Source of the DNA: a virus
Taxonomy: Duplodnaviria > Caudoviricetes
Virus record (IMG/VR): IMGVR_UViG_3300020474_000013
Coordinates: 1 to 59,986 of that record
DNA length: 59,986 bases
Reading direction: 5' to 3' (one strand)
Shown: positions 8,159 through 51,063 of the stretch, in pieces
Numbering within the stretch: position 1 is the first letter of the stretch
How the letters are laid out: the number at the start of each line of letters is the position of its first letter
Notes under the pieces: model-generated
What the model was told of the DNA's origin: nothing
The model's input: the letters and a program-made list of their open reading frames with translations, nothing else
Databases searched by the model: none
Position numbers and translations under genes: made by a program

Positions 8159-8637
8159 TATTCATTGTCCTCAAATTCATATTCAAAGAATACTGCTGTT
8201 TTTTTCCAATCTTCTCTAGCTTTAATCCAGTTCCAAAATCCTTCTCTGCCAACTCCTTCTATGCCTTTACAGTCATTAGCTTTAGCCCATTTATATATAA
8301 CTTTAAGACCTCTATCAGCCCAATTATTCATTTTCTTACCAGTTACATGGTCAATGTTTAACATTCTTTTACCAGTAGGATATTGATTTATTTTTGTAAT
8401 AGCACATCCAACAATGTCTAAACTACCTTTATCAAAAATAATCCATAATGAAGCTCTGTTATTAAGGCAATCATAAAATACATCTTTAGGTGTACTTCTA
8501 CCATTAGAGCGTTTACAAGATTTTTCTAGAAATTTTTCACATTGTTCCCATACAAGAGTCATCTTATCGCTAGGCATTAACGATATTTCAAAACCTTCTT
8601 CTGCTTCTACTTCTATTTTTTCTGCTACTTGATTCAT
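8158..8637 (-). CDS. Conserved phage protein, possibly GNAT-like fold
   Basis: 159 aa; AKANDCKGIEGVGREGF motif typical of podovirus genes that precede ejection proteins. Confidence 0.45.
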   Translation of the reverse strand: MNQVAEKIEVEAEEGFEISLMPSDKMTLVWEQCEKFLEKSCKRSNGRSTPKDVFYDCLNNRASLWIIFDKGSLDIVGCAITKINQYPTGKRMLNIDHVTGKKMNNWADRGLKVIYKWAKANDCKGIEGVGREGFWNWIKAREDWKKTAVFFEYEFEDNE

Positions 8638-11039
8638 GCTGGCATTACCTTTTGTGGATTTAATGGTGGAGCTTGTGTTTTACCACCAGTTTTTGCTTGT
8701 CTTACTCTATCTAACATACCATCTAATTGTTTAGAACCTGCATCAGAACTACCATCACCTAACATAGATACAACATCTGCTGGAATAATATATTCATCTT
8801 GTGATACAGCAGCTATTGCTTTATTACCTATATTCATAGGTAAATCATCTGCCATACCGCTATTGCCATTGCCTTCTATTAATCCTTCTGTTTGTACATC
8901 TGGATTACCTGCAGCTTGTTTTAATACCATATCTCTTAACATCATAAGTTGTTCTTGACCATACTTAATAATAAACTCATTTATAATTTCATTATTATCT
9001 GTTTCACCAAGAATAAACTGTATAACTTCTTGCACTATAGGGTCTTGCATCATCATATCTGTTGATTGACCAGTAGGCATAGGAATATTTATATCTTGAC
9101 CTTCTTGATAACCCATTGCTTCTACAACTTTTTTACCTTTTTCTGTTTTAGCTAAAGCTTTTAATCCTTCATTAGGTAATTCTTTATTAGTATCTCCACC
9201 TTCTGCAAACATAGGTGCTCCAAAAATACCACCACCTGGTCCGCCTATAGACATAGGTGGTTGCTCAGGAAATTTTTGCATAGGTGTATTAGCTGGTGCT
9301 GCTGGTGTAGGTGATGTATTGTAGGGAATATTTTTACCTATAGACATTTCATCACGCATAGCATCTCTATTCTCCAAACCTCTAATCATAGGAGGAGTTA
9401 TTGGAGTTTTTATTTTACTAAAATCAGGTATTGTTACATCTGCTCCACCTTCAATAGGTATTCTTATTGTAGGAGGAGGTGTATTTATAAGTCCTCCAAT
9501 AGGTTGAGAAGGCATAAATTCACTTGGAGGTAATATAGGTTTAGGTCTATCTCTATAAAAATCTATAGGTCTAGGCATAGGCATATCTATAGGTCCAGGA
9601 GTAACGAAATTATCTGGTGGACTTATAGGTTCTATATTTCTAATTGTACCTTTACGACCTATGTCAGGTGGAACTATAGGTCCATCTGGTGGTGGTACAT
9701 CTGGTGGTGGTGGAGGTGGTGGAGGTGGTGGCGGTGGTGGTGGTGGTGGAACAGGTCGTGTAAAGTATGGTTGTATAGGCTGTTGTGTAAATCTTGCATA
9801 TGGATTAATCATGCTACTCATTTGAGGATTACTATAAAAACTTCTATAACTTGGTGCTTGCATAAAAGGATTGCCATAACCACCAAATGTTGGAGGCGGC
9901 ATGAATCTACTTGGAGGTGATAATGGTTGTAATCTTTGTGGTCTAAATCCTCTATAATTTTGAGAGGGCATAGAATAATTTTGAGAAGGTATAGAATAAC
10001 TATATGATTCCATTTGTGGATTACTACTATCTTCTATATCTCCAGCATATCTTGTTAAATAACTTTTTGGGTCATTTCCTTTAAAGTATCTGTTTTCAGG
10101 AGAAAAACCTGCCATAAATCCAGGTGTAATTCGTCTAGTTTGTCTAGTAGTAGTTGGGTAACTATTTTGCATTGGATTATAATTCATATTCATTATTGGG
10201 TCATAGTTTGAATAAATATTACGACCTCCTTGATAACCTGTTGTACCACCATCTGCAAAATTAGTGCTACCGCCTGTAGCTATTGGTATTTGCTCAGGGT
10301 ATCTTTCATACATTAATCTTTTGCGTTCTTCTTCATCTATATCCATTTGTCTTAACATTGCTTCAAATTCATCTTGTGATTGCATTACAGCTCCAGTACC
10401 TGCTGTAGTTGCTGCTAACATACCAGTAGGAGTCATTGCTGCACTTCCTAATGATTTTATACCTTCATCTAATCCAGGACTAAATATTTTTTGTAAAGAT
10501 GCTCCTGGTCCACCTACAGTTTGTCTTACTGCTTGTTCTGCAGCTTGTTGACCAGCTAAAGTTGTAGGTGGTGTTTGTGCAAAACTTGTAGGTGGTGTTA
10601 CAGGTCCAACAAAACTTGGGTCAACAGGTGTACCTATACCTGCTGTAACTTGTGCATCAGCTATAGCTGTATCTAAACCTGGATTTGCTACACCTTCTAA
10701 AGCTTTTGTACCTAATCCTGCTGTAAGACCTGATAGTAATGCTTTACTTCCAGAACCACCTGTTTGTGCATATGTAGCTAAACCTGCTCCTATACCTGCC
10801 ATAGCTCCTGCTGATAATCCACCAATGCCTAATGCAGCAAAAGCACTAGGTGCTAATAAACTACCTAACATAGGTGCTAAGAAAGGTAAGAAAGCTTCTG
10901 GCTGTCCTGTATCTGGATTTATTGTTATAGGCATAGCAGATGCTAATCCTTTAACTTCTGCAGGATTTACATGAAGTAACATAGAATCGCCAAAACGACC
11001 TTGTGCTGCTACATTTTTGGTTTGTTGTTTTATATCCAT
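8634..11039 (-). CDS. Internal virion protein with a Pro-rich low-complexity centre
   Basis: 801 aa; N-terminal GRFGDSMLLHVNPAEV...INPDTGQPEAF, a 16-Pro run, C-terminal G-GxGMADD...SQDEYIIPADVVS motif. Confidence 0.65.
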   Translation of the reverse strand: MDIKQQTKNVAAQGRFGDSMLLHVNPAEVKGLASAMPITINPDTGQPEAFLPFLAPMLGSLLAPSAFAALGIGGLSAGAMAGIGAGLATYAQTGGSGSKALLSGLTAGLGTKALEGVANPGLDTAIADAQVTAGIGTPVDPSFVGPVTPPTSFAQTPPTTLAGQQAAEQAVRQTVGGPGASLQKIFSPGLDEGIKSLGSAAMTPTGMLAATTAGTGAVMQSQDEFEAMLRQMDIDEEERKRLMYERYPEQIPIATGGSTNFADGGTTGYQGGRNIYSNYDPIMNMNYNPMQNSYPTTTRQTRRITPGFMAGFSPENRYFKGNDPKSYLTRYAGDIEDSSNPQMESYSYSIPSQNYSMPSQNYRGFRPQRLQPLSPPSRFMPPPTFGGYGNPFMQAPSYRSFYSNPQMSSMINPYARFTQQPIQPYFTRPVPPPPPPPPPPPPPPPPDVPPPDGPIVPPDIGRKGTIRNIEPISPPDNFVTPGPIDMPMPRPIDFYRDRPKPILPPSEFMPSQPIGGLINTPPPTIRIPIEGGADVTIPDFSKIKTPITPPMIRGLENRDAMRDEMSIGKNIPYNTSPTPAAPANTPMQKFPEQPPMSIGGPGGGIFGAPMFAEGGDTNKELPNEGLKALAKTEKGKKVVEAMGYQEGQDINIPMPTGQSTDMMMQDPIVQEVIQFILGETDNNEIINEFIIKYGQEQLMMLRDMVLKQAAGNPDVQTEGLIEGNGNSGMADDLPMNIGNKAIAAVSQDEYIIPADVVSMLGDGSSDAGSKQLDGMLDRVRQAKTGGKTQAPPLNPQKVMPA

Positions 11040-41262: not shown

Positions 41263-41742
41263 CTATTGTTTGTTAAGTAATGCTTCTATTCGCTCTTCAA
41301 TATCCGCTTCAACTTCATCGCTTGTTCTTGCTTCTTTGGTTTCAACAACATCACTAAACAGCGATACACTTTTACCTAGCAATTCCAATGCTCGAATCCT
41401 AGCTGAATCTGAATCTGATTCTTTGGACTCACGATACAGTTGGTCTATGACATAGTTTCTTGTTCTGAGACTACTAGCAACTGCTGACTGCTCTTTACGT
41501 TCAATAGCCCTTTGTATGCTTATTGCTATCTTAGGGTTTGCAACTAAACGACTTGCTTCTACTTCTACCCACTTGGGAATCTTCCCTTGCTTAGTTAGAG
41601 CGACATCATAAACCTTTGCATATGCTTCTTTATAACTACCCAACTTGCCCTTGATAATTTCATCCACGAACTGCCTTTGCTTTATCGTTAATTCAATTTC
41701 TTTTTTGACTACTTTCAGATTTGGTTTTTCATCTTCGCTCAT
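41263..41742 (-). CDS. terS: Terminase small subunit
   Basis: LTIKQRQFVDE HTH, ASRLVANPKI, RIRALELLGK. Confidence 0.85.
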   Translation of the reverse strand: MSEDEKPNLKVVKKEIELTIKQRQFVDEIIKGKLGSYKEAYAKVYDVALTKQGKIPKWVEVEASRLVANPKIAISIQRAIERKEQSAVASSLRTRNYVIDQLYRESKESDSDSARIRALELLGKSVSLFSDVVETKEARTSDEVEADIEERIEALLNKQ

Positions 41743-41906: not shown

Positions 41907-42086
41907 GCAACTACCAAGAAGCAGTATCACATTATTAATATACGAACTTGGTTGAGGGTCTCAAGAATTGCCCTCGTAGATAGAGAGAAGCTACATAACA
42001 AATATGCGTACCATTAGAAGTACTGAAAGACCTCGATATAGGTTGAAACAAAAGTACAGATGCGGAGACGATAATTTCCAGTTGCG
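41907..42086 (+). ncRNA. Candidate multi-stem structured RNA in the early leader
   Basis: Closing helix GCAACT/AGTTGC encloses ACCAAG/CTTGGT, GAGGGT/GCCCTC, GTAG/CTAC and ACCT/AGGT stems; no ORF. Confidence 0.45.
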
Positions 42087-42096
42087 ACTACTCCAA

Positions 42097-42151
42097 TAGT
42101 CTCTGAATTAACAGACTGATGAGCATCCTAATTATGGGGTGCAAGAAACTA
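42097..42151 (+). ncRNA. Type III hammerhead ribozyme 1 (variant with an AA insertion before GAAA)
   Basis: TAGT-C | TCTG-AATTAA-CAGA | CTGATGA | GCATCCTA-ATTA-TGGGGTGC | AA GAA-ACTA; predicted cut after GUC at 42101. Confidence 0.7.
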
Positions 42152-42174
42152 ATATATTCTTGGAGGAATTAATT

Positions 42175-43239
42175 ATGTTTAAACCAAGTGAAGCAAAAAC
42201 TTCATGCCTACATATTTTGAAAGGGAGTAATATTCCTTTTTTAATTGGTGGTACTGGAGTTGGAAAATCCGCAATAGTTAAAGAGATTGCGGAAGAACTA
42301 GCAAACGATAGAACTCTTACTGATTCAGTAAGTCCTAAAGATGATGAATTTGGATTCATATCTTTTAGACTTGGGTTAGTAGAATCTATTGATTTGGGAG
42401 GGTTGCCTTATATTGAAGAGGGAACTCAAAAGAAAGCATTTTTAGGCAACTTGCCTAGAAGTGGAAAGGGTCTATTTTTTCTTGATGAATTTGCACAAGC
42501 ACATTCAAGCGTTCAAGCAACGATAGGACAATTACTCGACCCAAAAGGAAAAAACGAAGAGCGAAGAATTGGCGATTATGTTTTTCCTAGTGGGTGGAAA
42601 ATTGTCTTAGCGGGAAATAGACATACTGATAGAAGCGGAGCAAATAAAATACTTAGGCATTGTCAAGATAGGACTACTGCTATTCAGTTTACTCACGATG
42701 TTGAGGACTGGTTAGCGTGGGCTGATAACAACGACATTGACTTGAATGTTCAAGGTCTAATTAGATTTATGCCACAGCTACTATGGGACTTTGACCCTAA
42801 ATGCAACGACCCACAGCCAAGCCCAAGAAGTTGGGTAAGGTTAAGCGATACTTTGAAAACTGACCCGCCAAAACGATTGATGCAAAAATTGTTTGAGGGC
42901 GATGTTGGACAAGAATCCGCTATTGAATTGATGAACTTTATCTCACTTCAAAATGATGTTCCAAACATATCTGATATATGTAAAGGAAAAGATGTTGAAG
43001 TTGTAGATGATGCGGGTCTTTGCTATGCGACAACGATTGCATTAACAACTGCAATTAACGGAGCGAATGATAACGATGTTTATGATTTCTTTGAAAATGC
43101 TTTGAACTATTTGAAGCAACTTTCAACTGTAGAATTTTCTATATTCTTTGTTAGAAAAATTACTGGACTTAGAAACGAACTCAAAGAGTGCGATGTATAT
43201 TCTAAGTTTAAAATTGATAACCAAGATTTAGAAATCTAA
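42175..43239 (+). CDS. MoxR-like AAA+ ATPase
   Basis: Walker A GGTGVGKS, Walker B FFLDEF, LAGNR, PSPRSW; start moved to the ATG after GGAGG. Confidence 0.88.
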   Translation: MFKPSEAKTSCLHILKGSNIPFLIGGTGVGKSAIVKEIAEELANDRTLTDSVSPKDDEFGFISFRLGLVESIDLGGLPYIEEGTQKKAFLGNLPRSGKGLFFLDEFAQAHSSVQATIGQLLDPKGKNEERRIGDYVFPSGWKIVLAGNRHTDRSGANKILRHCQDRTTAIQFTHDVEDWLAWADNNDIDLNVQGLIRFMPQLLWDFDPKCNDPQPSPRSWVRLSDTLKTDPPKRLMQKLFEGDVGQESAIELMNFISLQNDVPNISDICKGKDVEVVDDAGLCYATTIALTTAINGANDNDVYDFFENALNYLKQLSTVEFSIFFVRKITGLRNELKECDVYSKFKIDNQDLEI

Positions 43240-43297
43240 ACTCACGAAGCGACAAGGGAATATTTATTATTGACTGGTAAATATTCCTTTTCCGCTC

Positions 43298-43354
43298 ATT
43301 CTGATATTGGGATGTGTATCCCAACTGATGATTCAAAAATGATGAAATCAGAAT
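43298..43354 (+). ncRNA. Type III hammerhead ribozyme 2
   Basis: ATTCTGAT-A | TTGGGAT-GTGT-ATCCCAA | CTGATGA | T-TCA-AAAA-TGA-T | GAA-ATCAGAAT; predicted cut after AUA at 43306. Confidence 0.9.
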
Positions 43355-43384
43355 TTTATAAATAAATTCTTGGAGGAATTAATT

Positions 43385-44362
43385 ATGAAAAAAGATAATG
43401 CAAATACTTTATCTGAAAATGCAACTTTGGTGCGACTTACAACGAAGCATCCAAGCGGTATTAAATCAGATAAGGATTTAAAAGAGGGTCTAGCAATAGA
43501 CCAAAAAGCAAACAACGATTCACTTCACGTTGCGAAGTATATCTTTGGTAGGGAAGCAAATAGATATTTCAGAAGAATTATCAATCAGTTTAGGAATAAT
43601 TATTTTTATCCCTTAACTGTCCCTTGGGATGATAATACTAGCGACTTTGAGGGTAAAGTTTTAAGTGGGTGGCGATTATGTCCAAACCAAGAACTTGATA
43701 GGCTCATGGATAAAGTGAACGATGCTAAGGTTGACTTCCAAAAGGAAGTAAATTCATTTCTTGATAATTACGATAATTTAATTGAATGGAATAAACACAG
43801 ACTTGGCGATGCTTTTAAGTTGTCTGATTATCCTAAAAAAGAAGTGATAGAAACTAAGTTTAGATTTGATTTTGAACTTGGTACTGTCCCACAATTTAAC
43901 AGTAAGGATATTCGTTTAAATGTATCTGAGAAACTTCGCAAGAAGATTGAAAGCGATGCATTAAAAAGAGCAACTAAAAATATTGAAGCAATAACACGAA
44001 CTACTGTTGAAACTCTTTTGGAATCTGTAGAACATTTAGCTGACAAGCTAGAGTCTTATGACCCAAAAACAAAAGGTGGTGGATTCTTTAAGAATTCTAC
44101 TTTTGATAAGTTAAGACAAACTTTAGATACGCTTCCAAGTATCAATTCTGACATTCTAGGGAATGACAAAAAGATAGCGGAAGCACATCAAAATTTAGTT
44201 AGTGTCTTTGCAAAAATAAATGATGTTAATTCACTTCGTGATGATGATGATTATACGGACAAGAAGCGAAAGCAACTTGCGGATGATTTGAAAGATAGCG
44301 TTAGTGATTTGGCGGATGATATGAAAGGCGGATTTTTAGATTCAATGTATTCTAAAAAGTAA
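43385..44362 (+). CDS. Helical protein (DUF3150-like) associated with the AAA/vWA pair
   Basis: 325 aa between the MoxR ATPase and the vWA gene; T.PW...GWRL.P...LGDAF..SDYP motif. Confidence 0.5.
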   Translation: MKKDNANTLSENATLVRLTTKHPSGIKSDKDLKEGLAIDQKANNDSLHVAKYIFGREANRYFRRIINQFRNNYFYPLTVPWDDNTSDFEGKVLSGWRLCPNQELDRLMDKVNDAKVDFQKEVNSFLDNYDNLIEWNKHRLGDAFKLSDYPKKEVIETKFRFDFELGTVPQFNSKDIRLNVSEKLRKKIESDALKRATKNIEAITRTTVETLLESVEHLADKLESYDPKTKGGGFFKNSTFDKLRQTLDTLPSINSDILGNDKKIAEAHQNLVSVFAKINDVNSLRDDDDYTDKKRKQLADDLKDSVSDLADDMKGGFLDSMYSKK

Positions 44363-44420
44363 GCAAATGACTGGGCGGGGAAAAACTATTTACCAGTAAA
44401 TATTTTTCTTCGCTCCTTTT

Positions 44421-44475
44421 TTTCTGTATTGCAATGTGTATTGCAACTGATGATTAGGAAACTATGAAACAGAAA
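44421..44475 (+). ncRNA. Type III hammerhead ribozyme 3
   Basis: TTTCTGT-A | TTGCAAT-GTGT-ATTGCAA | CTGATGA | T-TAG-GAAA-CTA-T | GAA-ACAGAAA; predicted cut after GUA at 44428. Confidence 0.92.
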
Positions 44476-44506
44476 CTCATAAATAAAATTCTTGGAGGAA
44501 TTAATT

Positions 44507-45865
44507 ATGTTAAATAGTGAAGAGCGAATAATTAAAGCTAGAGCGAAACTTATGAAAGGTAATATTGGTATGGCTACCATGCTACTAAAACTTACTTTGA
44601 TTGAGGATAATGAGCGATGCCAAACTATGGCTACAGACGGAATTAATATTTATTGGAATGATGAATTTGTTAAATCAATATCAGATGAAGAAATCCAAAC
44701 AGTATTAATTCACGAAGCAAGTCATGTCATATGGGAACATCCAATTAGAAAAGGTAAACGAATTCACGAACTTTGGAACATAGCTACTGACTATGTAATT
44801 AACTCTTGGATAGCATACGATTTAGGTATGCAACTTCCCGAGGGTGGACTACTTGATAGGCAGTATCATAGACAAAGTGCAGAACAAGTTTATAGAACTT
44901 TATCTAATGATGATGAAGCCCTAGATGATGCCCTTGAACAATTAGAATCTAATTCAGATGATGATGATGATTCTGATTCTCAAAATGGCGGTGGCGATTC
45001 TGATTCAGATTCTGATGCAGATGCAGATGATTCTGATTCTCAAAGTGGCGATTCAGATGCTACTGGAAATGGACAAGGTAAATCTCTTGAAGAGAAACTT
45101 GCTGATGTCAAATTACCAAGTGGCGAAGTTTGGATGCCAACTAATGAAAATGGACAAGAACTATCGCCTACTGAAATGGCTGAACTACAAGAGGAACTTC
45201 AAAGAACAATATCAATGGCTGATAAGCTAGATACTATTGGAGAAAACCCTACTGGTGGTTTTGGTAAAGCTATGGAACAACTAAACGAAAGTTATGTTGA
45301 CTGGGTAGATGTAATGCGAGATTTATTGCAAAGCGTTTACTCTGATAATCCTACTTGGACAAGATTAAATAAAAGACATTCTTGGAGGGGGGTTAATTTA
45401 CCTAGCAGAGACAAAGAGCCACAAGGCGGAGAACTCGTAGTTGCTATTGATACAAGCGGAAGTGTTTCACAAGAAGAACTAAATGTTTTTGCAACTGAAA
45501 TCAATTCCCTAGCGGAAGAGTGTGGTATCAATAAAATTAGAGTTTGTTATTGTGATACTACTGTCCACAAAAACTCAAAAGGCGAATGGTGGGATGAATA
45601 CGACTTGGATTGTGAAGAGTTGGAACTTGTCTCTCGTGGCGGTGGCGGAACTTATTTTGACCCGCCTTTCAACTTGTACAACGACTACACAGAAGATACA
45701 GATGAAGTAGTAGCATTTATCTACTTTACAGATGGGTATGGCGAGTGTAGTGCAGAAGTTGAGCCCGATGTTCCAGTAATATGGGCATTGAGTGGTGGCG
45801 AAAATAGGTGGAGCAATGAACTTCCTTTTGGGGAAAAAGTTGCTATAGATTTCTCTAGTCTTTAA
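44507..45865 (+). CDS. DUF2201-type metallopeptidase with vWA domain
   Basis: TMATDG, HEASH, WNIATDYVIN, acidic D/S linker, MIDAS DTSGS, GGGGTYF, YFTDGY. Confidence 0.88.
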   Translation: MLNSEERIIKARAKLMKGNIGMATMLLKLTLIEDNERCQTMATDGINIYWNDEFVKSISDEEIQTVLIHEASHVIWEHPIRKGKRIHELWNIATDYVINSWIAYDLGMQLPEGGLLDRQYHRQSAEQVYRTLSNDDEALDDALEQLESNSDDDDDSDSQNGGGDSDSDSDADADDSDSQSGDSDATGNGQGKSLEEKLADVKLPSGEVWMPTNENGQELSPTEMAELQEELQRTISMADKLDTIGENPTGGFGKAMEQLNESYVDWVDVMRDLLQSVYSDNPTWTRLNKRHSWRGVNLPSRDKEPQGGELVVAIDTSGSVSQEELNVFATEINSLAEECGINKIRVCYCDTTVHKNSKGEWWDEYDLDCEELELVSRGGGGTYFDPPFNLYNDYTEDTDEVVAFIYFTDGYGECSAEVEPDVPVIWALSGGENRWSNELPFGEKVAIDFSSL

Positions 45866-45926
45866 TCGCAAATTGGTGTGGAGGAAAAAGTATTTACCAG
45901 TAAATATTTTTTCTTCCCGCATCAAA

Positions 45927-45983
45927 TTTCTAATATCAAGATGTGTATCTTGGCTGATGATTCTGAAAAGATGAAATTAGAAA
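45927..45983 (+). ncRNA. Type III hammerhead ribozyme 4
   Basis: TTTCTAAT-A | TCAAGAT-GTGT-ATCTTGG | CTGATGA | T-TCT-GAAA-AGA-T | GAA-ATTAGAAA; predicted cut after AUA at 45935. Confidence 0.9.
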
Positions 45984-46015
45984 CTTAAAAACTGTCCTTG
46001 GAGGGACATATAATT

Positions 46016-46849
46016 ATGCAAAATAATAATTATAAAAACGAGTGTTCTCCAGTTAGTACCCATGTTTCAGATGAAACTAAAACATGGTTAGATAACATGA
46101 AGAATAAATATAGTATTGATATTTCAACACAACTTTTTTATGTTGTTTCAAAGATGATTAAATCTGAAAAGCAATTAGAGAAAGTTGTAGTTGCCAGTCT
46201 ACTAGATGACCATGAGAGCAAGGGTAATACTTTGCGAGAAATGGCTAGTGAATTGGGTATTAAAGTCAATGTTAATGTAGCTGATAAAATTGCATCAAGA
46301 ATGGTGCCAGTTGTAAATGCTAATGTTGTTGATGTTTTTTCTAAACACAAAAAAACTGGTGTTGAAACAGCTAACATGATTAACGAATGTTTGGACAAAA
46401 ATTCAGATGTTAATACTGTAATGAAATCTAAGTTAGAGGAAGTTGTTTCTCAATCTAATGTGCAAGTTAAAACAGTTGATGAAATTGACTGGCAGAGATT
46501 AGCAAATTGGAAGTACAAAGACTTAGATATTCTTGGTGTATCCTTTGAAAATTATTCTATTCTTAAAGAAGATAATATCAAAAAAGGATTCAAGAATGGA
46601 TTGTATGCAACTTTGCATAGTCAAGCGTTAGGATTGTGGCGTGATGAAGAAAAGGAATTATCCATAAGGGATATTGCGAAACTTCAGCCCTATCAAACTC
46701 CAACTGGAGATTTTAGGATTCTTACAATTCAAACGATTGTTAAGAGACTTATCAAAGCTATTGTGCATTTTGGAACGGGAGAAGAGAAGCAATTACTCTT
46801 TGGAACTTTCCAAGTTTATCCGCATAAGGCTAAGAAAAAGTCTGTCTAA
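46016..46849 (+). CDS. Hypothetical early protein (possible N-terminal RHH and C-terminal HTH)
   Basis: 277 aa; VSTHVSDETKTWLDNM and LSIRDIAK stretches. Confidence 0.55.
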   Translation: MQNNNYKNECSPVSTHVSDETKTWLDNMKNKYSIDISTQLFYVVSKMIKSEKQLEKVVVASLLDDHESKGNTLREMASELGIKVNVNVADKIASRMVPVVNANVVDVFSKHKKTGVETANMINECLDKNSDVNTVMKSKLEEVVSQSNVQVKTVDEIDWQRLANWKYKDLDILGVSFENYSILKEDNIKKGFKNGLYATLHSQALGLWRDEEKELSIRDIAKLQPYQTPTGDFRILTIQTIVKRLIKAIVHFGTGEEKQLLFGTFQVYPHKAKKKSV

Positions 46850-47024
46850 GAAATTAGTGCAACAAAAACAATAGACCAGTAAATATTTTTTGATTCGCTG
46901 GGAAGGTTGTGGTTGCCGTATTTTTTTCTGATGCAATATGAGAGTGGGTTTTTTGGGGTATCTTAGACCCTTAACCTACTCTCAATTTTGCAATAGGCGA
47001 AGTCTCACGAAGTCAATTTTGCCA

Positions 47025-47083
47025 AAACTGTATAGAAAATGCGTATTTTCTACTGATGATTGCCTAAAGGCATGAAACAGTTT
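47025..47083 (+). ncRNA. Type III hammerhead ribozyme 5
   Basis: AAACTGT-A | TAGAAAAT-GCGT-ATTTTCTA | CTGATGA | T-TGCC-TAAA-GGCA-T | GAA-ACAGTTT; predicted cut after GUA at 47032. Confidence 0.92.
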
Positions 47084-47117
47084 ATTAAACTTAACTGCCC
47101 TTGGAGGGGTAATTATT

Positions 47118-47369
47118 ATGAAAAACGAAAAAGAATATACAATATGTTTAACGACAAATTGTTCATATGAATATAAAGTAAAAGCTAAAGATAGGAACGA
47201 AGCTATAATTAAAGCTAAAGAAGATTTAATATCTGATTTACAAAATAAAACCAATGACATTGTAAAATCTCAATGGTATGTATGCGATGTTGATACTAAT
47301 TTAGATGATGATGAGTTTGTTCTTACCCATAGTTTTGGAACATTAAAAGGTATGGGGGGTTTAGAATGA
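47118..47369 (+). CDS. Hypothetical early protein
   Basis: 83 aa; GGAGG RBS; VKAKDRNEAIIKAKE. Confidence 0.65.
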   Translation: MKNEKEYTICLTTNCSYEYKVKAKDRNEAIIKAKEDLISDLQNKTNDIVKSQWYVCDVDTNLDDDEFVLTHSFGTLKGMGGLE

Positions 47370-47632
47370 CTAATCGAGAACTATTAGAATTTACTTTGAA
47401 AGTAAACATAGGAACTTGCAACGAAATCTATACAAAGATTAATAGGGAACTAGAACAAAAATCAGATATTGATATGGCTCTAGTTAAATATTTTAATACT
47501 TTGGTTTCAATCAATCATAAAGTGCAAGATGTTTTATATAAGGAAAGGGAAAACTTAAACATCCCTAACCCAAAACATTTTGGATTTACAACTAATGATG
47601 AGATTGTAGAAGTTGAAGTGCAAGAACTGTAA
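47366..47632 (+). CDS. Hypothetical early protein
   Basis: 88 aa, ATGA overlap, followed by a terminator. Confidence 0.65.
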   Translation: MTNRELLEFTLKVNIGTCNEIYTKINRELEQKSDIDMALVKYFNTLVSINHKVQDVLYKERENLNIPNPKHFGFTTNDEIVEVEVQEL

Positions 47633-47640
47633 ACAAATTA

Positions 47641-47684
47641 AGGCGGTATGCTACTGTAAAAGGTAGTGTACCGCCTTTTTTTTT
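47641..47684 (+). terminator. Intrinsic terminator of the early operon
   Basis: AGGCGGTATGCTAC/GTAGTGTACCGCCT stem followed by a T-run. Confidence 0.9.
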
Positions 47685-47829
47685 GGTCTAAAAAAAGTGG
47701 ATATACGCAGGATAACTGGGATGGTAATAAAAAATATTTACTGGTATATTGTTTTTTCTGGTGTTGTTTGGGGTGGGGTAATGTTAGATGAGATGACAAA
47801 AAATAAAATATATTTACTGGTTTTCAAGC

Positions 47830-47861
47830 TGTGGATAACTTTGTGGAAAACCTGTAGATAA
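47830..47861. promoter_or_regulatory. Three tandem DnaA boxes
   Basis: TGTGGATAA (perfect TTATCCACA), TGTGGAAAA and TGTAGATAA at 12- and 11-bp spacing, same orientation. Confidence 0.75.
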
Positions 47862-47864
47862 CCC

Positions 47865-47893
47865 TTGCAATTTGCTATCAATTACATTATATT
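47865..47893 (+). promoter_or_regulatory. Sigma70 promoter for the small RNA
   Basis: TTGCAA-17 nt-TATATT. Confidence 0.65.
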
Positions 47894-47896
47894 AAT

Positions 47897-48015
47897 GGAA
47901 CTAATATTTGATTGCATAAGATTTTTAGTTTTCCTAAATGCAACTTTCATATATTAACCTCCAAGCTTATTATTAAGTTTAAAAGGGATAGTCGTAAGAT
48001 TGTCCCTTTTTTTTT
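47897..48015 (+). ncRNA. Candidate trans-acting antisense small RNA
   Basis: Own promoter and terminator; 5' stem; central TTTCATATATTAACCTCCAAG is complementary to the CTTGGAGG...ATG leaders of the five ribozyme-preceded genes. Confidence 0.65.
47981..48015 (+). terminator. Intrinsic terminator
   Basis: AAAAGGGATAGTC-GTAA-GATTGTCCCTTTT followed by a T-run. Confidence 0.9.
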
Positions 48016-48242
48016 GGTAGTCGGTTGATAGTCTATGATAGGCGACACACCACCAAGTCTCCAACAGAAAAATCCCAGACTGGTAAATATTTTTTATCCT
48101 GAAATCACAGAGATGATAGAAACCTGTAGTGTTTAATAATACAGCAGTAGGGGTGATGAGGCGTTGTAAAACAATAGACTGGTAAATATTTTATTTTTGT
48201 CAGGAAAAACTACTGGTCTAGGAAACACAGCAGTAGGGTAAA

Positions 48243-48258
48243 TGTTCCACGTGGAACA
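48243..48258. promoter_or_regulatory. parS-like palindrome
   Basis: TGTTCCACGTGGAACA is a perfect 16-bp palindrome matching chromosomal parS (tGTTtCACGTGAAACa). Confidence 0.75.
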
Positions 48259-48297
48259 ATATGTATTTCACTTTGATAGCATTTTGCAGTATAATAA

Positions 48298-48856: not shown

Positions 48857-49340
48857 TATACCAAAAAGTTAGTAGTGCATTAGAACATTGTTGCATTACT
48901 AACTCCTTTGTTTCGCATATCTCTTTAGGATTATCTATCATAATCTTCCAAAAAACCTTTTCTTTATTGTGTCCACAATCATTCACTAACTTTTTCTGTA
49001 TTCTTGAAAGCATGACTGCCTTTGGTGGAGGCTGATTAAATCTATGACTGGTAAATATTTCTTTTCCCATCCCAGAAGCTCTCCCCAAAGCTCCACTTTT
49101 TGCTATTAATTCAAGGTATTTATTACAGACATTGTGTTGCTCTGCTGTAATTTTTTGCTGTAAGAAAGATTTATCTATGATGTGTTGGTCAAACACGATT
49201 GCCCTACCAACCTTGCTTTTACCTATTTTGGTTATTGCAACTTGGTTTCTGAAATGTAGATAAGGACTTCCTATATCATTAACTTGTAATGTTTCAGAAC
49301 TCCCAGTCAAAGTTATCTTCAACTTCTTCAATTTCTGCAT
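48801..49340 (-). CDS. Hypothetical protein downstream of the primase-helicase
   Basis: Up to 179 aa; start uncertain. Confidence 0.55.
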   Translation of the reverse strand: MQKLKKLKITLTGSSETLQVNDIGSPYLHFRNQVAITKIGKSKVGRAIVFDQHIIDKSFLQQKITAEQHNVCNKYLELIAKSGALGRASGMGKEIFTSHRFNQPPPKAVMLSRIQKKLVNDCGHNKEKVFWKIMIDNPKEICETKELVMQQCSNALLTFWYISQKNPVSLFQQSLVSQV

Positions 49341-51063
49341 ATCTCCCGTTGACTGGATTAAAGGTCATATTAACACTTCCTAACTTGCCTTGCCAACCCC
49401 ACCTAGCTTTCCAGTTATGTATTTCAACTCCCTCTTCTCCTCTGTAAACTGTTAATCCTGTATCAGCCTTACTAAACCAAGCATATGATTTAGCTACATC
49501 AACTCCTGTACATACATTCTTTTTGCCATCCCTAATAAATGGTTTAGTTGGATGTGCAACAAAGAACACTAATACATCGTGTTGCTTTGCGAACAGTTGC
49601 ACTTTCGTTAGCATTTCACTAACCATATCAGTTTCTAATCCTGTATGGTCTGTATGTATAAAGTTAAATGGGTCTATGACTAAAATCCTAACACCATATC
49701 TCATAACTGCACTTGCTCCTTTTTCAAGGATAGCTTCTATTGTTGGCAACCCGCCATCTTGATAGTCTTGAAATAGTATGTGTTCTCTTATCCAAGTTTC
49801 CGCAAAGTCTTTCTCCTCTTGTGTCATTCTTGCGTTAAACCCCTCAAAGAATGGCTTACCTACAAGGATTTGAGACAACTGTACTGCATGAAGTTGTACT
49901 GGTTTCTCAAACGAACAGAAACAAGTTTTCCAACCATTGTTCCTTGCAACATTGACTATTAGTTGGTCTATAAATGCTGACTTGCCATCCCCTGCATGAC
50001 CAGTACAAACAACTAAATTGCCTGTAGATAAAGTAAAGATTTCATCTACACTTGGATAGCCTGTAGATACACCACTAGGCATACCCTTATCATACAAACT
50101 TTGGAATTCATCTGCGTAATGCTCTAGGTTATTTAATCCATGTAAAGGAATAGGCTCTGCGTTAATGATTGAATCTCTTAGCTTTTCCGCTCCATATTTA
50201 ATTAATACATCGTTTGCATCCTTACAATCAAAGTTATTTACTCTATAACACCTAGCTTTGTTTAATCTTCTAGCTAATTCATCTGCTAGTATGTTTCCGT
50301 TTTCATCTGCATCTGTACATAAAATAACCCTTTCAACACCCTCAAACTTATCTCTATCGTTCCATACATACTTAAATCTTCCATCCTCACTTGGGTCTAT
50401 CTTGTTATCAGTAATCTTGTTTGGTGCACCATTTGGAACTGAATAACAATCTACATTCATTACATTCTCAAAGGCTGTCTTGATAGCCAATGTGTCCATT
50501 TCTCCCTCTGTTATGATGATTGTGCTTTCTAATGTTGGCAATTTGCTGTCATAAACCTGTTGTCCCCAAAGCTTTTGTGCGTTCCCATCCCACCAAAAAC
50601 TCTTTGTTCCGTTTGCACTCCTATACTTAACTGCTTCTACCTCCCCATCGCTGACGAAGGAAAAACCAATGACTGGTTTATTATTTTTTTCGGTCTGGAT
50701 GACTCCTGTGGTTTCCGAGGCTGTAATACTTATACCTCTTTCCTGCAACCAATCACTAGCTTTGCCATTAGGTATATTTTTTGGTGCTTCTACTGGTTTT
50801 TTTACTTCTTGTTTTACTACTTTCATTTTAAATTCCTCTCTCCTTGATACTAAGCCATTGATACCGCAATGATGACAATGATATATAACCTTATCAGACT
50901 CAATATTTACTGATAAAGGTTTGTCGTGTTTGTTTTTACTCCTCTCATTTTGGCATGAGGGACATGATATTTTGTGTTGACCAAGCTTCATTCCGCTTGT
51001 TCTTGATTGATTATTTATATGACTTAAAAAGTCTCTTTTATCCATTTCACTATTGACATACAT
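49294..51063 (-). CDS. DNA primase-helicase (T7 gp4/Twinkle-like)
   Basis: Zn finger CPSC...CHHC; TOPRIM TEGEMD, D.D..G, KDAND; helicase GHAGDGKS, LVIDPFN, VAHP. Confidence 0.93.
   Translation of the reverse strand: MYVNSEMDKRDFLSHINNQSRTSGMKLGQHKISCPSCQNERSKNKHDKPLSVNIESDKVIYHCHHCGINGLVSRREEFKMKVVKQEVKKPVEAPKNIPNGKASDWLQERGISITASETTGVIQTEKNNKPVIGFSFVSDGEVEAVKYRSANGTKSFWWDGNAQKLWGQQVYDSKLPTLESTIIITEGEMDTLAIKTAFENVMNVDCYSVPNGAPNKITDNKIDPSEDGRFKYVWNDRDKFEGVERVILCTDADENGNILADELARRLNKARCYRVNNFDCKDANDVLIKYGAEKLRDSIINAEPIPLHGLNNLEHYADEFQSLYDKGMPSGVSTGYPSVDEIFTLSTGNLVVCTGHAGDGKSAFIDQLIVNVARNNGWKTCFCSFEKPVQLHAVQLSQILVGKPFFEGFNARMTQEEKDFAETWIREHILFQDYQDGGLPTIEAILEKGASAVMRYGVRILVIDPFNFIHTDHTGLETDMVSEMLTKVQLFAKQHDVLVFFVAHPTKPFIRDGKKNVCTGVDVAKSYAWFSKADTGLTVYRGEEGVEIHNWKARWGWQGKLGSVNMTFNPVNGRYAEIEEVEDNFDWEF

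Follow-up and report, generated by a model that had tools for sequence, protein, structure and literature searches.

Bacterial trans-encoded base-pairing small RNAs (sRNAs) block the Shine-Dalgarno (SD) sequence of their targets with a seed of 6-9 nt, and phages have antisense RNA systems of their own, such as P22 sar, lambda OOP, and P4 CI. Hammerhead arrays flanking prophage genes have been proposed to cut long RNAs into single-gene mRNAs (Perreault et al. 2011, PMC3088659), and the synthetic insulator RiboJ combines the sTRSV hammerhead with a 23-nt hairpin before the ribosome-binding site (RBS) (PMC6206723). Here, we analyzed a stretch of 59,986 nucleotides, the IMG/VR record IMGVR_UViG_3300020474_000013 (the window), where five genes on the plus strand, starting at 42175, 43385, 44507, 46016, and 47118 (genes 1 to 5), are each headed by a hammerhead-like element (HH1 to HH5), and a small predicted transcription unit downstream of them (47865-48015) contains the complement of their RBSs. 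An earlier reading of the letters alone (the sequence-only reading) had described these elements and proposed that ribozyme-cut messages are silenced by one sRNA. The elements were all recovered with the same coordinates, and this interpretation was partly supported. A limited literature search found no paper linking hammerhead leaders with an anti-RBS sRNA or with a cis anti-RBS hairpin.

The ribozymes were analyzed with a covariance model, R1, built from an ungapped three-sequence alignment of HH2-HH4; with MAFFT, the alignments of all five elements came out structurally incorrect. When the window and 35 related IMG/VR contigs (36 sources) were searched, R1 gave 112 matches, every one on the gene strand, and within the window only HH2, HH3, HH4, and HH5 were matched. 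These four show the same order of elements, i.e., the 5' strand of stem III, U, A, the stem I hairpin, CUGAUGA, a short stem II with a tetraloop, GAAA, and the 3' strand of stem III, and this corresponds to a type III architecture (18 pairs), with a three-helix junction, loop-closed stems I and II, and an open stem III. In 72 distinct copies, paired cells amounted to 95.3%, versus 67.1% in shuffles and 28-50% in controls with slid partners, and two-sided changes were observed at 17 of the 18 pairs, in an alignment fitted to R1 itself, which flatters such pairing statistics. We consider the invariance of the core a stronger argument for hammerheads than these statistics. C3, U4, G5, A6, G8, G12, A13, A14, A15.1, and U16.1 were the same in all 72 copies and A9 in 71 of them, position N7 was free (U 57, C 7, A 5, G 3), and the cleavage nucleotide H17 was A in 54, C in 17, U in 1, and never G. 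An invariant catalytic core with a variable N7 and no G at H17 is the pattern predicted by selection for cleavage. Collectively, covariation and core rules support in silico that HH2-HH5 are genuine hammerheads.

The three-way junction, the CUGANGA plus GAAA core, the A15.1-U16.1 pair, and the non-G cleavage nucleotide are shared with RF00008 and with the prophage arrays described in PMC3088659, where several ribozymes likewise lie between genes of one phage transcript. Unlike RF00008, the elements studied here have U.U (A.A in some distant loci) in place of G10.1-C11.1, a 3-pair stem II, scores under the gathering cut-off, and AA inserted in HH1; unlike the arrays described there, every ribozyme comes together with an invariable RBS hairpin and with a long hairpin upstream. 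The U.U form may already be among the core variants of PMC3088659 and, since prophage hammerhead arrays were published there in 2011, the hammerhead half of the finding is, as far as that source goes, a variation on a known arrangement. Neither Rfam at the gathering score nor a 7-kb scan at E ≤ 10 reported a hammerhead, and short-stretch scans gave RF00008 (Hammerhead_3) as the best family match for HH2 and HH1.

The sequence-only reading had assigned one shared hammerhead leader to all five genes. This held for HH2-HH5, by R1 and covariation, but HH1 turned out to be of a different make. The R1 model does not match it, an invariant AA is inserted before G12 (GAAA), and stem III has merely 3-4 bp. 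The 24 distinct sequences indicate a conserved variant, with stems I and II that covary (seven covarying stem I variants) and a variable N7, and its best Rfam match was RF00008 (21.7 bits, E 0.0068, over an 86-nt stretch). A strict regular expression detected the HH1-type element upstream of 46 of 68 starts of the block's ATPase gene; the 22 starts left unmatched include re-fetched contigs and may be misses of the expression, one of them (L002) having a related 3' end. Just 5' of HH1, and overlapping it, a hairpin named P0 exposes a loop complementary to the RBS loop. Its 3' arm is also the 5' strand of HH1 stem III, including the cleavage-site C42101, and the minimum free energy (MFE) fold picks P0 over stem III. 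The hairpin was found in 24 distinct sequences (46 instances), the stem covarying and the loop invariant. In the distant loci L146 and L177, the first hammerhead likewise has a hairpin of this kind in front of it, its loop displaced by a single base. P0 is thus a second, independent conserved element complementary to the RBS loop, and this strengthens the case for selection on RNA-RNA pairing there; how P0 might work is a matter of speculation.

Behind each hammerhead, 11-25 AU-rich bases are followed by a hairpin with the SD in its loop. This display of the RBS, claimed by the sequence-only reading, was observed in all five leaders. Among 34 distinct leaders behind R1 matches, 33 had the loop closed by at least 4 pairs (4-7 pairs, 13 different 4-bp stems), and in 33 the loop was the 6-nt UUGGAG. 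The extended UUGGAGG is present at only 5 of the 57 listed gene starts, those of the five hammerhead-headed genes, and the structural genes have AGGAG-type sites, merely 4-5 nt of which are complementary to the seed of the sRNA. The 8-nt CTTGGAGG occurs nine times in the window versus 0.87 expected, a count reached by none of 100 shuffles; five of these precede the ATGs of genes 1 to 5 by 8-11 nt, one is on the minus strand at 47958-47965, and three are in coding DNA. As in RiboJ (PMC6206723), the ribozyme would remove the upstream context and give every gene the same 5' end, with a hairpin before the RBS. Unlike RiboJ in that account, the phage case is natural and occurs five times within a single operon, the SD is inside the hairpin loop, and the upstream hairpin would cap the preceding message.

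The small unit begins with a sigma-70-type promoter, whose 17-nt spacing was kept in 21/21 sources even where the hexamers differ; matches of the promoter regular expression at six places in coding DNA with no CCTCCA nearby were left out. The predicted sRNA fold contains a 5' hairpin, a single-stranded ACCUCCAAG (47957-47965), a small hairpin, and the terminator (47981-48015), and both promoter and terminator agree with the sequence-only reading. All 17 distinct sRNAs fold alike, with a 5' hairpin, an unpaired ACCUCCAA, a small hairpin in some lineages, and the terminator, and the seed was less paired than the remainder in 17/17 of them (0.47-0.99 vs 0.29-0.41). Conservation was 0.34 in the body, 0.96 in ACCTCCAA, 0.43 in the following 16 nt, and 0.85 in the terminator, i.e., the promoter, ACCUCCAA, and the terminator are conserved islands and the body is not conserved; judged by sequence, this patchiness is the pattern expected of an sRNA gene. 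Moreover, the terminator hairpin was more stable on the plus than on the minus strand in 12/12 distinct forms (average difference, 5.3 kcal/mol), G.U pairs were found in 11 of the 12, and a T-run of 8-9 is present on the plus strand only. The conservation and these strand-specific signals support in silico a transcription unit on the plus strand. The co-occurrence of the unit with the block in relatives, put forward earlier, was observed in 24/24 contigs containing the block's terminator.

With trans-encoded sRNAs this unit shares a promoter, a conserved single-stranded seed, a U-tailed intrinsic terminator, a variable body, and several targets with a common motif; unlike them, it has targets that expose the motif in the loop of a hairpin located behind a ribozyme, and its seed overlaps a 16S-like anti-SD core. 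It resembles P1 c4 in that a short phage-encoded RNA complementary to the RBS region of phage messages is proposed to act with no protein repressor. It differs in having its own promoter and terminator instead of being processed from the target transcript, in five or more dispersed targets versus one, and in that nothing here points to lysogeny, no integrase search having been made. The Rfam C4 family had no match in the gathering-score scan or in the 7-kb scan at E ≤ 10.

As proposed earlier, reverse-complementing the segment 47945-47965 gives the RBS, the spacer, and ATGAAA, and the sRNA is perfectly complementary over 8 nt to all five leaders, including the UU that is not needed for 16S pairing. 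In a test of the seed alone, duplexes with the five leaders ranked 1-5 of the 57 translation initiation regions (TIRs). More distant loci were collected with a scan for the U.U core followed by R1, and complement lengths were read by eye. They have a similar gene block and a co-oriented unit, and 7/7 new units, among the matches listed, were on the hammerhead strand. L100 and L177 combine AUGGAGG(U) leaders with a CCUCCAU seed; in L146, UUUAGGAGG is found in 2/5 leaders and the seed is CCUCCUAAA, a 10-nt complement; and in L102 a leader with CUUGGAGG goes with the seed CCUCCAAG. These results support in silico that the single-stranded ACCUCCAA is complementary to the leader loops and that both change together in some distant lineages. 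A candidate unit in L120, whose motif differs and which lies on the opposite strand, was dropped as a false match, and a pattern search in five fragmentary records gave only matches with 1 mismatch, which we regarded as chance.

We favor, with slightly better than even confidence, a block of genes processed by ribozymes, whose RBS loops are bound by a dedicated sRNA that lowers translation. In silico analysis established the folds and their conservation, on which strand the sRNA unit lies, and a complementarity with partial co-variation; we infer the cleavage, the single transcript, the pairing inside cells, and both the direction and the timing of the effect. The block (42175-47632) would be transcribed as one long RNA, in which each cistron has its own 5' module of a long hairpin (seen before HH2-HH4), a type III hammerhead, an AU-rich spacer, and the RBS in the 6-nt loop UUGGAG. 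Self-cleavage would generate single-gene messages, the upstream one with its 3' end capped by the stable hairpin and the downstream one starting with a 5'-OH, the folded ribozyme, and a uniform translation start. The plus-strand sRNA (~47900-48015), with its own intrinsic terminator and its own sigma-70-type promoter preceded by DnaA boxes, would present the unpaired ACCUCCAAG, form 8 bp (CUUGGAGG) with the RBS loop in each of the five leaders, and lower their translation. P0, with its CUCCAA loop, may be a second anti-RBS element before HH1, competing with HH1 stem III. A larger scheme, which we put forward only tentatively and think rather unlikely as a whole, is an RNA-only control circuit in several lineages of abundant marine phages. 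Here, the RBS loop would be addressed in cis by P0, which would give up its 3' arm for HH1 folding and thereby link cleavage and RBS release, and in trans by the sRNA, whose promoter next to DnaA boxes could make translation follow the replication state.

Hammerheads between phage genes have been known since 2011; in this locus, the ribozyme invariably comes with a defined translation start, which a dedicated predicted sRNA matches across phage lineages. This offers a testable role, i.e., insulated single-gene messages with a common 'address' readable by one RNA. If true, the ribozyme insulators of synthetic biology would have a precedent in nature, and a phage sRNA would be controlling an entire group of genes of its own phage, in phages related, by their terminase, to those of very abundant ocean bacteria.

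Several observations weigh against this proposal. The G10.1-C11.1 pair that closes stem II, usual in hammerheads though not absolute, is replaced by U.U in about 56 of the 72 distinct copies (G/C in 9-14), and the RF00008 scores of 28.2 bits for HH2 and 21.7 bits for HH1 are below the 48.5-bit gathering cut-off. The U.U in most copies and the AA insertion of HH1 imply that cleavage activity could be low or absent; the low scores, and the filtering-out of the elements in larger scans, are probably due to the U.U together with the short stem II. As for target choice, the five leaders had been expected to be the top partners of the sRNA. This was so for the seed alone, but the margin over the next TIRs was at most 1.5 kcal/mol, and full cofolding placed the leaders 3, 4, 5, 8, and 12 of 57, the primase/helicase TIR being first (gain of -10.5 kcal/mol). 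A whole-genome duplex scan in 40-nt windows was noisy and dominated by long spurious duplexes, and no own-genome pairing advantage was detected among 20 genomes (own -17.7 vs other -17.2 kcal/mol). The pairing claimed to extend through the start codon was weak; the corresponding stretch of the sRNA is located in its 5' hairpin, and the spacing varies between lineages. Compensatory changes, also anticipated, were found in L100/L177 and L146, but the co-variation read from these sequences is incomplete: in L017-type sRNAs an A faces the C of the leaders, the seeds of L016 and L019 fully match at most one of their leaders, and the match in L123 and L159 is limited to GGAGGUG/CACCUCC, equally a case of ordinary SD-16S complementarity. 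Finally, three marine metatranscriptome runs contained 5-6% of the sampled words; their contigs, which carry no strand, ends, or expression level, were of low depth (1-9) over coding parts with nothing in 47748-47971, and they cannot show transcription, cleavage, or the sRNA.

The anti-RBS segment could instead be a sixth copy of the same translation start, on the minus strand and driving a tiny open reading frame (ORF) of 22 aa, its likeness to the leaders arising from a shared RBS type. Read on that strand, it contains an RBS, a 7-nt spacer, and ATG AAA; GGAGG is followed at 6-11 nt by ATG or TTG in 21/21 close sources, and a CAT is kept 6-11 nt from the seed in most close relatives, which a minus-strand start predicts and which counts against an sRNA. 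A shared RBS type would also predict that the motif changes in step with the leaders. This CAT sits in the predicted 5' hairpin of the sRNA. The minus-strand ORFs, however, range from 6 to 102 aa with unrelated sequences. At the seven distant loci, there was no start codon in two, ORFs of 2, 3, and 5 codons in three, and ORFs of 29 and 32 codons in two. The antisense copy is also devoid of the leader hairpin, with 1 pair in 13/15 contexts and 3 pairs in 2/15, and the conserved promoter is directed to the plus strand, as is the terminator with its G.U pairs and T-run. To the right, the only minus-strand promoter-like site (48063-48035) scores 9/12, and the genes are on the plus strand. Taken together, these data make a minus-strand start very improbable. 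Reading the minus-strand peptide as a type I toxin was rejected, the peptide being neither hydrophobic nor conserved.

A real sRNA could have its main job elsewhere, as an origin transcript (priming or activation) or as a general mimic of the 16S 3' end competing for strong SDs in messages of the host or the phage, that of the primase/helicase gene among them, the five leaders being only some of its partners. Its place among DnaA boxes, repeats, and a parS-like palindrome would suit such a role, and so would the invariant ACCUCC, the single-stranded part in L123 that resembles the usual 16S 3' end, the best cofold gain at the primase/helicase TIR, and a pairing energy with no own-genome advantage. 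Yet, outside ACCUCC, the seed follows the non-canonical flank of the leaders (AA, AU, or UAAA opposite UU, AU, or UUUA) and not the 16S tail, the AGGAG-type sites of the structural genes provide a complement of just 4-5 nt, and a second conserved CUCCAA loop is found in the block's own leader; a main role elsewhere seems rather unlikely. It could also be argued that the hammerhead-like folds are conserved and non-cleaving, e.g., 5' stabilizers or protein-binding sites, and that regulation occurs with no RNA processing. The frequent U.U, the AA insertion in HH1, its short stem III (3-4 bp), over which P0 is favored by the MFE fold, and the sub-threshold Rfam scores of HH1 and HH2 are compatible with this, but it does not readily explain a core invariant over 72 distinct copies (A9 71/72) with N7 variable and H17 never G, nor the presence of the U.U variant immediately ahead of start codons in numerous unrelated contigs of marine phages (among the matches listed). 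Moreover, tandem hammerheads in prophage transcripts cleave in vitro, according to PMC3088659. We consider non-cleaving folds unlikely, and a ribozyme-processed block under sRNA control remains the preferred reading of the features in Table 1.

Table 1. Positions of the predicted elements in the window
Feature	Position	Strand	Details
P0 hairpin	42086-42101	+	5-bp stem; loop CUCCAA (42091-42096), exact complement of RBS loop UUGGAG
HH1, hammerhead-like type III variant	42097-42152	+	CUGAUGA core; stem I 4 bp, stem II 6 bp, stem III 3-4 bp; predicted cut 3' of C42101
RBS hairpin, gene 1	42155-42170	+	CTTGGAGG at 42159-42166
Long AU-rich hairpin with ACYRGTAAATATTT motif, 5' of HH2	43254-43290	+	
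HH2, type III hammerhead	43298-43354	+	Predicted cut 3' of A43306
RBS hairpin, gene 2	43365-43380	+	
Long hairpin, 5' of HH3	44373-44415	+	ACYRGTAAATATTT motif at apex, then U-run
HH3, type III hammerhead	44420-44476	+	Predicted cut 3' of A44428; MFE fold gives three-way junction
RBS hairpin, gene 3	44487-44502	+	
Long hairpin, 5' of HH4	45873-45925	+	ACYRGTAAATATTT motif at apex
HH4, type III hammerhead	45927-45983	+	Predicted cut 3' of A45935
RBS hairpin, gene 4	45993-46008	+	
HH5, type III hammerhead	47024-47084	+	Longer stems I and II; predicted cut 3' of A47032; R1 39 bits, E 2.6e-5; MFE fold gives junction
RBS hairpin, gene 5	47096-47111	+	
Intrinsic terminator, end of gene block	47640-47687	+	16-pair stem and T-run; conservation 0.88
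Three DnaA-box-like 9-mers	47830-47861	+	11-12 bp apart, abutting -35 of sRNA promoter; conservation 0.81
Promoter of sRNA	47865-47893	+	Sigma-70-type, TTGCAA-17-TATATT; conservation of -35 0.98, of -10 0.80
Predicted sRNA	47900-48015	+	~116 nt; start inferred from -10

The window is a complete marine phage genome of 59,986 bp with direct terminal repeats. Its large terminase is 58-60% identical to the counterparts in phage 023Pt_psg01, Pelagibacter phage HTVC027P, and phage DSL-LC04, the terminase of HTVC027P being the nearest. A long structural module on the minus strand ends at the small terminase gene (41263-41742) and is followed by the plus-strand block, an intergenic region of ~650 bp, and the replication genes, including the primase/helicase. 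The products of the block (42175-47632) are a MoxR-like AAA ATPase (phrog_1297), a DUF3150 protein, a DUF2201 metallopeptidase/VWA protein, and three proteins with no family; the last gene, gene 6 (47366-47632), overlaps the stop of gene 5 and has no leader of its own. Among deposited phages, the relatives of the ATPase are only ~27% identical, and blastn of 42000-48100 against them gave no match.

The surroundings of the sRNA unit look, by sequence, like a replication origin. The cluster of DnaA-box-like 9-mers is also present in the distant L100 and L123; the 9-mer itself is not above chance genome-wide (30 vs 21 expected), and so only the cluster is notable. Beyond the unit lie repeats and a perfect 16-bp palindrome (48243-48258), kept in all aligned relatives and just upstream of a promoter-like site (48267-48295), next to which there is a conserved plus-strand gene. 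GATAGT-type repeats (47985-48040) are found in the terminator stem and twice just after it, are conserved in relatives, and may be binding sites.

Additional sites complementary to the sRNA were observed outside the leaders. The start site of the primase/helicase gene (49294-51063, minus strand) has GGAGGUUUAA and may be an extra sRNA target, and the CTTGGAGG copy at 45381-45388 inside gene 3, conserved in relatives as coding sequence, is a potential further one. The copies at 9523 and 9910, in similar contexts and on the strand opposite to an 801-aa ORF (8634-11039), probably represent an intragenic repeat.

The directional motif ACYRGTAAATATTT occurs 13 times in the window versus 0.32 expected, at sites that include 41807, 43273, 44392, 45896, 46875, 47732(-), 47808(-), 48079, 48178, 49047, and 56058(-). 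It is at the apex of the long hairpins before HH2-HH4, and elsewhere it is solitary, in both orientations, in the origin-like region. It may serve as an RNA hairpin, a protein site, or a phage promoter; for the promoter, no spaced -35/-10 fit was found, and the motif forms RNA hairpins. The spacer between gene 4 and HH5 is unusually long, ~175 nt (46850-47023), and holds further hairpins and one copy of the motif. In some relatives, the long hairpin is stem III of a type I hammerhead, which makes it an RNA-level partner of the ribozyme.

Hammerheads of other kinds and in other contigs were also observed. A wider scan for the U.U core gave more than 119 stretches, and R1 then gave at least 68 and at least 45 matches at E ≤ 0.001. 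Among the matches listed, the U.U-type type III hammerhead is found immediately ahead of start codons in numerous further contigs of marine phages (loci L075-L190), some of them with no SD at all, and some distant loci have A.A at the closing position. Relatives of the phage additionally contain type I hammerheads with the canonical G-C closing pair right after a stop codon (L017:5913, L021:5913, L026:3154, L001:1204, and others), and in several of these stem III is the long motif-bearing hairpin.

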